A DNA stretch of 64,000 nt from positions 152,582,001-152,646,000 of the forward strand of contig OZ024742.1 of assembly GCA_964016885.1 (NCBI GenBank), in the 5' to 3' direction. This DNA comes from Eledone cirrhosa (taxonomy: Eukaryota). A program made the position numbers and the translations under genes. The notes below the pieces were generated by a model. It was not told the origin of the DNA. It was given only the letters and a program-made list of their open reading frames with translations, and did no database searches. Positions 1,139-62,600 of the stretch are shown piece by piece. How positions within the stretch are numbered: position 1 is the first letter of the stretch; every line of letters starts with the position of its first letter.

Positions 1139-1387
1139 TAAAATACGTAGTTAAGAAAGCCACAACAATGCAGAGGGGAATCTCGAGGTAGGAAGTGAAT
1201 GATAGATAGGAGAAACAGGTGAAAGTGAAAATTGAGAGAGACAAAGATGAAAACAAAACAAAGGTAGAAGGGTTACCGTAGTGGAGATTTAATCCCAGTC
1301 GAGATTCCCCTCTGCATTGTTGTGGCTTTCTTAACTACGTATTTTACACATTTCACAATGCTTCAAGCAAACTTTAACACCCTCTTA
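1139..1387. mobile_element. Miniature fold-back Penelope-like element in a (TA)n tract
   Basis: Perfect 48-bp inverted repeat 1139-1186/1299-1346, then a tail CACAATGCTTCAAGCAAACTTTAACACCCTCTT nearly identical to the tail of the GIY-YIG element at about 62488-62520. Flanked by (TA)n on both sides. Confidence 0.8.
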
Positions 1388-1713
1388 TATATATATATAT
1401 ATATAAATATGGCGTTGTTATTTTGCGTTGTTGAAATGAGCAGTGGCCTATCACCTGGCAATAAAAACTGGAGTCAAATTTATTGGTGTACCAAAACCAA
1501 GGTACACACACCTACACAAGTTTGTGTGTGTGTATGTATGTGTGTATATATATATATATATATATATATATATATATATATATATATATATATATATATA
1601 TATATATATATATATATATATATATATGTATATATGTGTGTGTGTGTGTATGTATCTCTATATATATATCTATATATATATATAGTTATGTAATAAACAA
1701 CATAAGGCAATTA

Positions 1714-1761
1714 TTTAATTTACCAGTGGTTTCTTAAGAGCTTTCAATCATCAGAATGAAA
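1714..1761 (-). ncRNA. Type I hammerhead ribozyme (left arm copy)
   Basis: Minus strand reads TTTCATT-CTGATGA-TTGAaagctcTTAA-GAAA-CCactGG-TA-AATTAAA. Confidence 0.7.
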
Positions 1762-4065
1762 AACCCTGGTGCATTTATCGACGTTGGATTTTAAAAACAA
1801 AAATGCAATCTATATGAAAGTGAGGCTGGAAAAGGAAGAAGGAAATGAAAAATAAAATAAAAACACACATGCAAACACACACACACTCACACACAGACAA
1901 TTATATAATTAGACATATATATATATACATACACACATACATACACACACACGTATACACACACACACATATATATGTATATATATATACATGCACATAC
2001 ATATACACATACACACATACACACATAAATAACAACATATCCATACATACACATACATATATACAACTACACCCACACACACACACACATATATATATAT
2101 ATATATATATATATATATATATATATATATATATATATATATATATATACACATACACATACATATACATACACATATACATACACATACATACATACAT
2201 ACACACAATCATACGTATATACACACGTACATACATACACATACATACACACATATATGCACGCATACATACGCATGCACAAAAATAGAAATATATAGAC
2301 ACACCTCTACATACTCGCACACACAAATACATATAAGAAAAAATATATAATAATAAAAATTAAAAATGAATATAAAGATTATTATAATGTTGACAGCGAT
2401 AGAGGCAACAAATAAATGAACAAACACACGTGGTAAGCAATACACACAAATGCACGCACACATACATACGTAAAAATAAATACATACACACACTCTCACA
2501 CATAAATATACATATACAAATACATAAACACATACATACGCGTACACAATTACATTCACACACACACATATACATATATACACATACACACATATATATA
2601 TATATATATATACACGTACATACATAACCATACAAATATACACATACATATACATACATATCACAAACACATACATACAAATACAAACACACACATATAT
2701 ACATGTGTAAAACTCACTCTTAGATAATTCATATGAACCTTATTTAACTCTAAAATATATATATATATATATATATATATACACATATATACCCATACAT
2801 ACATACTCACATACATATATATATATCTACACACACATATATACATACACATACGTATGCATACATACATCCACACACGCACACATATACATATATAACA
2901 AAAAATATATATATATATATGAGAAAGATCATAAATATTTTATATATATATAAAACATAAATATTTTATATATAAAAAAATATTGTATATATAAAAATAA
3001 AAATAAAAATAAAAATAAAAATAAAAATGAAAATAAAAAGTTGTGAATACGACAGATAATAAATAAAAAAAATATATTTTTAGAAAATGGTATAAATGCT
3101 TATAGCAGATTTAGAGCACTCAACAAGTTCCTGGAGCAAAAGATCAATGAAAATAATCATTAAATCACTATATGTAATGATGCATATACATACACCCTTA
3201 TACATATATACATATACACATATATATGCATACAGATATACATACACACACACACAAAAACACAACCACAGAAATACACACACACATACAATTATATATA
3301 TATATATATATATATATATATATATATATATATATACACATAGGGAAAATTCTGACCCCACGGCAGAGCTCAAGCTGTTTCTGAGGCTATTATATATATA
3401 TACACACAAAACCATTATATAAAAAAATACATATACACGCACAAATATACACACGCCCATACACACACATTAAATCTATATATACACACATCATTTTTAT
3501 TTTAAATTTAAATATATATACAATATTTTTTTATATATACAATATTTATTTTTTATATATCTATATAATATTTATGTTCTTTCTCATATATATATATATA
3601 TATTGTTATATATGTATATGTGTGTGTGTGTATGTATGCATACGTATGTTTATGTATATATGTGTGTAGGTATATATGTGTATGTGAGTATGTATGTATG
3701 TGTATGTATATGTGTATGTACATGTATGTGTATGTGTATATATATATATATATATATGCGTGTGTGGTTGTATATATGTATGTGTATGTATGGATATGTT
3801 GATATTTATGTGTATATGTATGTATGTGTATATGTATGTGTATGTATATATATGTGTGTGTGTGTGTATATGTGTGTGTGTATGTATGTGTGTATGTATA
3901 TATATATATATGTGTGTATGTATATAATTGTGTGTGTGTGTCTGTGTGTGTTTGCATGTGCGTTTTTATTTTATTTTTCCTTTCCTTCTTCCTTTTCCAG
4001 CCTCACTTTCATATAGATTGCATTTTTGATTTTAAAATCCAACGTCAATAAATACACCAGGATTT

Positions 4066-4126
4066 TTCCATTCTGATGATTGAAAGAAAATTTTTTTTGC
4101 TTTTAAGAAACCACTGGTAAATGAAA
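4066..4126 (+). ncRNA. Type I hammerhead ribozyme (right arm copy)
   Basis: TTCCATT-CTGATGA-TTGAAAG...CTTTTAA-GAAA-CCactGG-TA-AATGAAA; predicted GUA cleavage after 4119. Confidence 0.8.
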
Positions 4127-60080: not shown

Positions 60081-60814
60081 TATCTATCTATCTATTTATA
60101 TATATATATATATATATATATATATATATATATATATATATATATATATATATATATATATATATATATTTCTTTAAGTCGTTTGGAAGCCTCGACAATG
60201 CAGATGAGTAAATCTCCGGGTAACAAGATCCGATGGTGGAGAGAGAGATGTAAGTGGGTGTACGTTGAGATGCGTGGCGTGTATAAGACTGTAACGTGTA
60301 GAGGAATGAAGCAAAGAGCGTAAAGGATAAAAATAAAAATAACAACACGAGAAAGAGTTAAATTGGGAGAGATTTAATTGTCCCTATATATTTCGGATTC
60401 ACATCCATCAACTGGGTTTTTTTTCCGGTGTCTGTCGGAAAGGTGCGAAACGTGTCCTCCGCTGTTCGTTTTTTGAATATCTGAGGTATTCAGCAGAGCG
60501 CGCGTGCGCGTGAAATGGGGTCGGTCAGGCAGAGGTCAGCAGCCGAAGTAGTTCTTTCAATTGTGGGAGTGGGGTGGCGCTACTGTCAGTCCATTCTCTG
60601 CCTGTTTAGGTGAATGTTACTGTGTGTTTGTGTGCGTGTGTTGTTGACTCGCTTGAGTGTTTGTGTGTGTGCGTCTGTTGTTGCCTTGTTCCTCTGTATT
60701 GGCAGTGTAGTATGTCCGTATGGTGGAATGCTACTGTGTGTGTGTGTGTTTGTGTGTGCGTGCGTTGCTGTCTCGCTTGTGCGTGCGTGTGCGTGTGTTG
60801 CTGCATCGTTTGTT

Positions 60815-61497
60815 AACTTAAACCAACCATCTCATTTCGCTTCTCACGGATCGGTTGTTTAATTGTGGCTCTAGGCGTTTGATCCAAAGTGCTTCCTAGA
60901 TACGTAATGTGCCGACGTTTCTTTCTGTCGCTAGAATTGTGACAATGGGCCTTCCGCCTTTGTTTCCGTATGTGGCTATGTGTTTCCGGAAAAATGAGGC
61001 TCTGGTTTTAGTGTGTTCCTTGATTCGGATGTGCAACGGCCGGATTGTGCTACCTATATAGTATTGGTTGCACTTGTTACATTCTATCTTATACACGACG
61101 TATGTGCGTAGGCAACAGTTCGCATGGCGTATCGGGCAGTCTCTGAAGGAACACGCGTCAGTTGATTTCCCGGGTTTCCTGGAGAGGCATCTTCGCAGGG
61201 AGGGGCCCGAGTGGGCCAGGTGGATGTCGAGGCCCTCCCTCCGTATAGCCTTGCGGCTAGCGTTGGTGGTATTTTCGCCCAGGTGTGGCATTTTAAGGAA
61301 GCACTTGCCTTGGGCGCCTCTCTGTTTCTTGTGCCTGGTGTCTCCTACTCTGTCTGTGAGCGAGGTAGGGTACTCGTTGGTCTCCAGCAACTCGAGGAAT
61401 CGCTTGTTATGACTGACACCACTCGCGGGAACGCTGCATCTGTTTTTGATTCGCGCGATCTCATTCGTGATGTATCCTCTTTTGGCACTGTTAGGGT
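60815..61497 (-). pseudogene. PLE RT C-terminus + Cys-rich linker + GIY-YIG endonuclease (Neptune-like layout), internal stop
   Basis: PNSAKRGYITNEIARIKNRCS...LETNEYP...CSFRDCPIRHANCCLRTYVVYKIECNKCNQYYIGSTIRPLHIRIKEH...LRI*EALWIKRLEPQLN. Confidence 0.9.
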
Positions 61498-61500
61498 CTA

Positions 61501-61864
61501 CAGGAAACCCGGGAAATCAACTGACGCGTGCTCCCTCAGAGACTGCCCGATGCGCCATGCGAACTGTTGCCTACGCACATACATCGTGTATAAGATAGAA
61601 TGTAACAAGTGCAACCAATACTATATAGGTAGCACAATCCGGCCGTTGAAGATCCGGATCAAGAAACACACTAAAACCAGAGCCTCGTCTTTCCAGAGAC
61701 GCATAGCCAAATGCGGAAACAAAGACGGAGGGCCCATTGTCACAATTCTAGCGCCAGAATAAAACGTCGGTACATTATGTATCAAGGAAGCACTTTGGAT
61801 CAAACGCCTAGAGCCACAATTAAACAACCGATCCGAGAGAAGCGAAATGAGGTGGTTGGTCTAA
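61501..61864 (+). pseudogene. Inverted second copy of the GIY-YIG endonuclease
   Basis: RKPGKSTDACSLRDCPMRHANCCLRTYIVYKIECNKCNQYYIGSTIRPLKIRIKKH...APE*NVGTLCIKEALWIKRLEPQLN. Confidence 0.9.
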
Positions 61865-62600
61865 GTTAACAAACGATGCAGCAACACACGCACACACACA
61901 GTAGCATTCCACCATACGAACATACTACACTGCCAATACAGAGGAACAAGGCAACAACACACGCACACACCCACACACATTCAAGCGAGACAACAACACA
62001 CACACACACACACAGTAACATTCACCAAACAGGCAGAGAATGGACTAACAGCTAGCGCCACCCCACTCCCACAATTGAAAGAACTACTTCGGCCGCTGAC
62101 CTCTGCTTGACCGACCCTATTTCACGCGCACACGCGCTCTGTTGAATACCTCAGATATTCAAAACAACGAACAGCGGAGGACACGTTTCTCACCTTTCCG
62201 ACAGCCCCCCCCCCCCCCCCCCCCGGAAAAAACCCCAGTTGATGGATGTGAATCCGAAATATATAGGGACAATTAAATCTCTCCCAAGGTAACTCTTTCT
62301 CGTGTTGTTATTTTTATTTTTATCCTTTACGCTCTTTGCTTCATTCCTCTACACGTCTTATACACGCACGCGTCTCAACGTACATCCATTTACATCTCTC
62401 TCTCCACCACCGGACCTTGTTACCGGAGATTTACCCATCTTCATTGTCGAGGCTTCCAAACGACTTAAACAATTACCTTATTATTCCACAATGCTTCAAG
62501 AAAACTTTAATACCCTCTTTTATATATATATATATATATATATATATATATATATATATATATATATATATATATATATATATATATATATATATATATA

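Follow-up and report, generated by a model that had tools for sequence, protein, structure and literature searches.

Fold-back elements in (TA)n tracts of an Eledone cirrhosa chromosome as one-tailed, inverted insertions of Penelope-like elements

Introduction

The stretch of DNA analysed here, called the window in the following, comprises 64,000 nucleotides of Eledone cirrhosa (contig OZ024742.1; G000:C3:152582001-152646000) within a 3.0-Gb assembly and contains a series of fold-back elements, inverted repeats that lie in (TA)n microsatellite tracts and carry an unpaired tail on one arm. An earlier note on this DNA had drawn attention to seven such elements, here E1 to E7, and had suggested that they originate from Penelope-like elements (PLEs). 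In each family one arm ends at the family 3' end and the other arm a fixed 39-175 nt further in; the outer and the inner point are referred to as the distal and the proximal site, and the distance between them is the tail. This fold-back shape is that of an already described PLE insertion and the families are further members rather than a new system; tails of up to about 175 nt and a counted rule of one tail per pair are modest additions.

Fold-back elements of the window

The elements and their parts are as follows.

E1 tail-less arm: 1139-1297, minus strand; inverted 5'-truncated copy that starts 39 nt inside the family 3' end, reach 159 nt
E1 tailed arm: 1299-1385, plus strand; 48 nt and a 39-nt tail (1347-1385), in which the family open reading frame (ORF) begins with its ATG and first codons
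E2 tail-less arm: 1683-3540, minus strand; about 1.85 kb of microsatellite-rich 3' untranslated region (UTR); a candidate hammerhead core was recognised visually at about 1723-1768, and a fragment of the E6 family is nested at 3346-3391
E2 tailed arm: 3600-4222, plus strand, left boundary approximate; type I hammerhead-like motif at 4073-4119 (descriptor match) and a 65-nt tail (4158-4222)
E3 tail-less arm: 16396-17907, minus strand; 1.5 kb, candidate hammerhead at 16442-16486
E3 tailed arm: 17908-18065, plus strand; 58 nt and a 100-nt tail (17966-18065)
E8 tailed arm: 19007-19880, minus strand; left-hand tail (19007-19076) and roughly two 430-bp units in tandem, each carrying one candidate hammerhead (19121-19151 and 19551-19581)
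E8 tail-less arm: 19881-20120, plus strand
E4: 21922-22082; tail-less arm 21922-21981 (minus strand, 62 nt), which stops inside the candidate hammerhead, and tailed arm 21978-22082 (plus strand) with a 66-nt tail (22017-22082); the arms overlap by 4 nt
E5: 23659-24118; tail-less arm 23659-23809 (minus strand) and tailed arm 23809-24118 (plus strand), tail 23963-24118; about 20 nt of the family end are missing from this copy
E6: 46052-46192; 64-nt hairpin centred on its own GAGCTC palindrome and a 77-nt tail (46116-46192)
Short, older fold-back of the E8 family: 50146-50427; tail on the left (50146-50197)
E7 tail-less arm: 60170-61496, minus strand; 1.33 kb with the C-terminal part of the reverse transcriptase (RT), the linker and GIY-YIG (frame 60896-61516)
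E7 tailed arm: 61497-62520, plus strand; GIY-YIG (61496-61762), 3' UTR and tail (62473-62520)

Self-BLAST and direct reading confirmed that all seven elements named before are true fold-backs bounded by (TA)n. Self-BLAST of the window returned inverted arms for six of them, at an identity of 100% for E1 (1139-1186/1299-1346), 84% for E2 (1683-1792/4034-4157), 98% for E3 (16396-16453/17908-17965), 77% for E5 (within 23659-23962), 90% for E6 (within 46052-46115) and 90-97% for E7 (60167-61185/61497-62475), and the fold-back of E4 was recognised by direct reading and by alignment to its own family. A scan for TA-anchored inverted repeats with 68 probes also recovered six of the seven, at a score that 6 of 288 random distant 4-kb targets reach as well; E4 was missed because its left flank is an impure (TA)5 run. 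The tails of the window copies measure, from E1 to E7, 39, 65, 100, 66, 156, 77 and 48 nt, and at the level of the family the tail is about 175 nt in E5 and 39 or 51 nt in E7. Inverted pairs occur at a density of 37 per 664 kb.

Other parts of the earlier description had to be revised. The apparent unpaired loop is mostly no loop but the longer reach of one arm, and the sequences are not all unrelated, as the tails of E1 and E7 are 92% identical over 36 nt and those of E2 to E6 have a GAG(TG)CT-type motif in common, which occurs in 11 of 19 family tails compared to 1.2 in shuffles, a contrast that is inflated because the pattern was picked after the tails had been viewed. The right-hand position of the tail, stated for the seven named elements, holds for these (7:0, p=0.016) but not beyond them, since E8 (19007-20120) and the fold-back at 50146-50427 both have it on the left, giving 7:2 for the window. 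Counted with 23 family references (natural copies, the E8 family left out), 21 tail ends at TA are in plus and 26 in minus orientation within 400 kb of sequence on the two sides of the window, and the ratio is 8:6 in 200 kb taken from four other chromosomes, with 64-kb bins ranging from 1:5 to 7:0. A regional strand bias of the tails was rejected on both of these counts, and the right-hand tail in the window is local chance.

Dispersed families with two fixed ends

Every named element is a member of a dispersed multi-copy family, for each of which the search gave 1,100-4,000 first-look candidates, 40 of them being scored. The family 3' end abuts TA at 31 of 31 loci in E1, 25 of 27 in E7, 16 of 17 in E3 and 11 of 19 in E2, where the loci without TA are mostly (CA)n-like; the low count in E5 (2 of 18) is explained by the window copy used, which stops about 20 nt before the end of the family. 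The inverted copy starts at a fixed distance from the 3' end, namely 39, 39 or 51, 65, 100 or about 155 nt depending on the family (the last taken from the window-copy end), while inserts are between 80 bp and 5.8 kb long in total. The hairpins of 140-460 bp fall at the lower end of these lengths and do not form a separate class of miniature inverted-repeat transposable elements (MITEs). Upstream of the proximal site, the 5' ends cluster at distances of 50-69 nt in E6 (88/187), 70-89 nt in E4 (36/94) and 240-269 nt in E1 (14/47); as many loci were fetched with short queries, these pile-ups are a lead toward the transcript start rather than a result.

Raw reads that may derive from another individual or species show the distal end joined to TA in three independent DNA runs (50, 34 and 21 reads) and, in one of the three, also the proximal end joined to TA (19 reads), while a joint of opposite strands at 6145/6232 (17 reads) was not used as its geometry is ambiguous. 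In the runs X18-X20, 34, 52 and 70 reads leave the E1-family end (L069:6255) 4 nt early into (CA)n, possibly reflecting a subfamily or a related genome with a different target.

Penelope-like origin of the families

In all seven families the tails can be assigned to the 3' ends of PLEs, provisionally so in E2, E4 and E5, in agreement with the PLE origin and TA targeting suggested before. The ORFs linked to them encode RT plus GIY-YIG in four families and GIY-YIG only in three, in one of these as a weak match. For the E1 family (L069/L061), RVT_1 is found at E 3e-11 and GIY-YIG at E 3e-4 to 1.5e-3, slightly below the Pfam cut-off, and the ORF has the motifs GPKF, DKG and YVDD as well as two cysteines between GIY and YIG. 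The ORF of E7 is 60-70% identical to it at the amino acid level and its GIY-YIG part is encoded by both arms. Judged by these motifs, E1 and E7 are canonical PLEs with an endonuclease (EN+ PLEs); the linker is C-x4-C-x6-C, differing from the CX2-5CxxC zinc finger before the endonuclease in Neptune/Nematis.

The five families E2 to E6 look Hydra-type by their motifs rather than by a phylogeny, E2, E4 and E5 by likeness. Over 1.5 kb, E3 matches at 76% identity the 3' UTR of a copy of 5.8 kb at locus L251; the 750-aa ORF of this copy matches GIY-YIG (Pfam, E 0.0016; RVT_1 gave no match) and has eukaryotic HTH_animal/RVT_1/GIY-YIG clusters as Atlas neighbours. In common with the Hydra clade as described by Craig 2021, this ORF has a CxCX5C linker, no CCHH and no cysteine pair between GIY and YIG, CxxC before E and CxH after N, to which the DKT motif in E6-family copies (frames of L348/L354), the candidate hammerheads in E2, E3 and E4 and the (TA)n target can be added, whereas longer tails and long 3' UTRs (the E3 unit is 5.8 kb including the inverted arm) distinguish the families analysed here. 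The E6 copies at L348, L352 and L354 hold collinear RT and endonuclease fragments that end about 1 kb upstream. E4 is linked to GIY-YIG and a candidate hammerhead at L285, with no RT part, E2 to GIY-YIG at L317, located 2.2-2.4 kb upstream of the 3' end, and E5 to a weak GIY-YIG match at L333 (28%, E 2.7e-6). Partial tandems of the type known as pseudo long terminal repeats (pLTRs) occur at L018 and in two copies in the C3 flanks (E1/E7) and at L348 and L354 (E6). The tail of the three E1/E7 tandems is continuous with the ORF in the same reading frame, in one of them over 300 codons to the first stop, and that of the two E6 copies continues into the ORF region.

A search with the Rfam hammerhead clan gave matches short of the gathering score in E3 (Hammerhead_1, E 0.006, 20.7 bits at a gathering score of 34), E4 (E 0.0014) and E8 (E 0.008), and none of the hammerheads at the eight loci searched exceeded the gathering score. 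Among the matches listed for the whole window (150 of 211), Rfam gave mostly microsatellite-driven microRNA (miRNA) models. A descriptor scan found the motifs of E2 and E8 together with three likely chance matches, and no canonical hammerhead core was seen in E1, E5, E6 and E7. A start of the tailed arm at the point of hammerhead cleavage, as E4 copies fetched with the whole hairpin had suggested, was rejected after a tail-only query, in which many tailed arms hold the whole ribozyme.

By its sequence, E8 is a retrozyme-like tandem unit of 430 bp with a candidate hammerhead, for which no ORF was found across a 26-kb array. It resembles the non-LTR retrozymes (Li et al. 2026 preprint, 10.64898/2026.07.22.740005) in its tandem units with a type I hammerhead-like motif each and no ORF found, but differs in that it forms inverted pairs in TA with one tail (5/5) and in this respect integrates like a PLE. 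At 560-1080, beside E1, about 1.2 units of the E8 family occur in direct, non-inverted orientation and end at the proximal site. At L357-L359 (G000:C4:349896000-349922000), a stack of TA-separated elements, namely an E8 unit, a fold-back of another PLE family and an E6 fold-back, is repeated in tandem about every 2.2 kb, forming a satellite made of nested PLE remnants.

One tail per pair, unequal arms and variable junctions

Pairs were counted if they stood head-to-head with TA at both ends and had not been chosen by a tail query. Two loci, L061 and L064, were excluded. L061 (G000:C2:218598000-218606500) is a palindrome of >8 kb with arms 99.6% identical including the host flanks, centred on an 85-nt spacer inside the PLE RT ORF, and may be an assembly chimera or a recent inverted duplication. 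Among the 58 pairs from 10 family groups, 18 family-defining one-tail pairs having been left out, 55 have one tail, three have two tails and none is without a tail, and one of the three two-tail pairs consists of two separate insertions. Solo copies end at the distal and the proximal site equally often (29:27), therefore a free choice of site predicts about 50% mixed pairs, from which the observed 55:3:0 departs with p=1e-13. Loci fetched with their own family add 64 one-tail pairs and one pair without a tail.

The two arms commonly differ in length. Leaving aside one unresolved pair and seven with larger gaps, 66 resolved pairs could be compared, of which 36 have a longer tail-less arm, nine a longer tailed arm and 21 arms of equal length, as follows for the tail-less arm longer, the tailed arm longer and equal arms, respectively: E1, 5, 7 and 2 (14 pairs); E4, 18, 0 and 6 (24 pairs); E6, 13, 2 and 13 (28 pairs). 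The arms meet in overlaps of 2-12 nt, in blunt joins or through fillers of 1-33 nt, some of which are visibly copied from nearby sequence, and the junctions are not the same in different copies. In six of six families, the two arms of an insertion resemble each other more than they resemble arms of other insertions (permutation p <0.001 to 0.046).

Formation of the inverted pairs

Each element represents two head-to-head, 5'-truncated PLE copies that were probably brought into (TA)n by one event in which both nicked strands prime reverse transcription. The RT-GIY-YIG protein, probably as a dimer, would nick both strands of the self-complementary TA tract, upon which one 3'-OH would start cDNA synthesis at the distal RNA site and give rise to the tailed arm, and the other would start at the proximal RNA site and give rise to the tail-less arm, the choice of the start site probably being aided by 2-4 nt of TA pairing. 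Both cDNAs would stop early and their ends would likely be joined by microhomology-mediated end joining of the host. The single tail per pair would then likely stem from each cut strand starting to copy at a different RNA site. For the anole PLE, nicking and extension of both strands and a predicted dimer are reported, and the tail is explained as the gap between two internal RT start sites (Frangieh 2024, PMC11167929). Nicking of the strands, assignment of the sites and the end-joining steps are proposed on the basis of that report and of what is observed in the genome, i.e., the family identity, the fixed ends, the single tail of each pair, the difference in arm length, joins with microhomology or filler, the common lineage of the arms and the identity of the E1/E7 tail with the ORF start.

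The earlier note had instead proposed a stereotyped fold-back or template switch, and for PLEs it has been put forward that a single strand primes itself, possibly using an antisense template (Arkhipova et al. 2013, PMC3846280). This explanation agrees with the palindromic centres found in E6 (GAGCTC) and in some E4 and E1 copies, with the pairs of equal arms and with the source variants common to both arms, but we consider it unlikely, because a cDNA begun at the tail end of a sense template cannot by copying itself yield a tail-less arm that is longer, and 36 of the 66 tail-less arms hold sequence absent from the tailed arm (the reverse being true in nine). Moreover, the junctions vary, and solo tail-less ends are as frequent as tailed ones, which implies that the inner site acts as a start and not as a stop. 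The one-tail rule, the unequal arms and the microhomology or filler joins together thus favour two cDNAs primed on opposite strands over the folding back of a single strand. Long perfect palindromes are unstable, and a long inverted PLE insertion might later have been shortened by a microhomology-mediated deletion of its centre. This would account for short hairpins and ragged junctions and is compatible with the favoured explanation as far as the ends are concerned. The microhomologies at the junctions and the microhomology deletions noted in PLE copies (PMC3846280) fit such a history, yet very young E1 copies (98-100% identical) are already short and unequal-armed with fillers, and the 5' ends pile up at family-specific points even in solo copies, which makes it quite improbable.

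Two independent head-to-head insertions into one TA tract would be conceivable insofar as TA tracts gather several elements and some apparent two-tail pairs are of this kind; they predict, however, tail classes of 1:2:1, a TA spacer and unrelated arms, whereas 3:55:0 and arms closer within than between insertions are observed, so that we give this origin hardly any credence. Equally remote is an origin as TA-targeting DNA transposons (Tc1/mariner MITEs) or as assembly chimeras, which the short hairpins beside TA and the palindrome at L061, a potential artefact, might suggest and which is refuted for the elements of the window. In the elements examined, symmetric terminal inverted repeats of fixed length are absent, as one arm is sub-terminal and lengths run from 80 bp to 5.8 kb, and the families lead into RT/GIY-YIG ORFs; arms that diverge by up to 23% and differing junctions at dozens of loci exclude assembly artefacts, against which the raw reads with ends joined to TA speak as well.

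Several observations weigh against priming from both strands at two coupled sites. [quoted passage not shown] The ORF links of E5 and E2 are GIY-YIG fragments only and E8 has none. The references were built from one-tail pairs, so that families behaving otherwise would not be in the library, and the 21 equal-armed pairs, some with a palindromic centre, are what self-priming predicts. Later gene conversion could also account for the likeness of the arms. In favour of TA pairing, 18 of 19 families have TA or AT no more than 3 nt from the proximal site compared to a background of 60%, but this contrast is inflated by alignments running into the TA flanks. Target-site duplications, which would demonstrate a single event, amount to 2 in 135 compared to 0.67 in shuffled data and to 1 in 41 compared to 0.2, neither being significant; in (TA)n such a duplication would be hidden. 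The coupling of strand and site and the role of TA pairing are deduced from genomic counts only, because the in vitro experiments reported by Frangieh 2024 saw neither strand-site coupling nor target homology.

Regarding target-site duplications, the same 13-mer occurs at 16368-16385 and 18116-18132, flanking E3 beyond the TA runs, and is a possible long duplication with TA expansion. A 14-mer at L085 is a single suggestive candidate.

Comparison with known systems and significance

In the twin priming of L1, associated with the names of Ostertag and Kazazian, both target strands are said to prime cDNA and microhomology to join the ends, with the second primer reportedly annealing at variable internal sites so that the two segments do not overlap. 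In the families described here the second start is fixed and close to the 3' end, hence the arms overlap and form a fold-back. No twin-priming model for PLEs came up in a literature search that was thin on subscription journals.

The insertion unit of EN+ PLEs is well known in its outline. Craig 2021 (PMC8557442) describes an inverted 5'-truncated copy, a tail of 30-40 bp that is often present at one end only and targeting of (TA)n; in Arkhipova 2013 (PMC3846280) the tail of one inverted pLTR covers the first codons of the ORF, and Goubert 2022 gives the inverted one-tailed structure as a feature for curation. Common to the elements reported in both former papers and to those of the window are the 5' truncation, the inverted 5' copy and the one-sided tail, pLTR tandems with a tail holding the first ORF codons, hammerhead-like motifs near the 3' end and (TA)n targets, which would hide a target-site duplication. 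In contrast to the published 30-40 bp, tails here are 39-51 nt in E1/E7 and 65-175 nt in the Hydra-type families, and the one-tail rule, the arm asymmetry and the junction types, which these papers treat qualitatively, are counted. Some families may already be catalogued in the supplements of Craig 2021 or in the library of Bonar 2026, a paper in which 31 PLE families with recent activity are reported for Octopus vulgaris. With PAc, the Poseidon element of Anolis (PMC11167929), our elements have in common a tail that is the distance between fixed ends at the pLTR-ORF junction, the use of both target strands, an AT-rich target and an insert length not set by hammerhead cleavage. For PAc neither strand-site coupling nor target homology is reported in vitro, whereas here 55 of 58 pairs have one of each end and most start sites are TA/AT.

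The formation of tandem and inverted PLE structures and the steps following the first strand are unvalidated according to both papers from the PLE literature, and the elements offer a large natural dataset on how the inverted structures form. The near-absolute one-tail rule and the unequal, end-joined arms constrain the models and provide a direct prediction for in vitro experiments. We are evenly divided on whether a rule for PLEs in general can be drawn from them, in which an RT-endonuclease dimer would act on two fixed RNA start sites, one for each nicked (TA)n strand, chosen via 2-4 nt of TA pairing, and in which all inverted insertions, canonical and Hydra-type, would be primed from both strands at a spacing of 39-175 nt and sealed by alternative end joining, with the 5'-end pile-ups marking the start of the pLTR transcript. 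If true, such a rule would supply the second-strand step of the PLE cycle, which is as yet unvalidated. In annotation, the short hairpins are easily mistaken for MITEs, short interspersed nuclear elements (SINEs) or miRNA precursors.

Further elements in the window

Solo tail-less copy of another Hydra-type family: 20130-21477, minus strand; GIY-YIG C-terminus at 21145-21477

This copy is 96% identical to one located 160 kb away. Solo tail-less ends of one further PLE family lie at 22241-22380 and 46203-46347, within the TA tracts of E4 and E6, so that single TA tracts accumulate several families. An inverted pair with members 3.3 kb apart (56519-56734 and 59841-60080) adjoins TA tracts, and each copy of a three-copy repeat (18395-18573, 56231-56409 and 62601-62707) starts directly after a TA tract. 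On the minus strand, a broken non-LTR RT at 6808-8200 (RVT_1, E 1.3e-15; RTE-like by eye) is interrupted by a TA tract, and a 154-aa frame at 41771-42235 with a weak match to ZSWIM3_N (E 0.001) is possibly the remnant of a Mutator-type transposase or a host exon.

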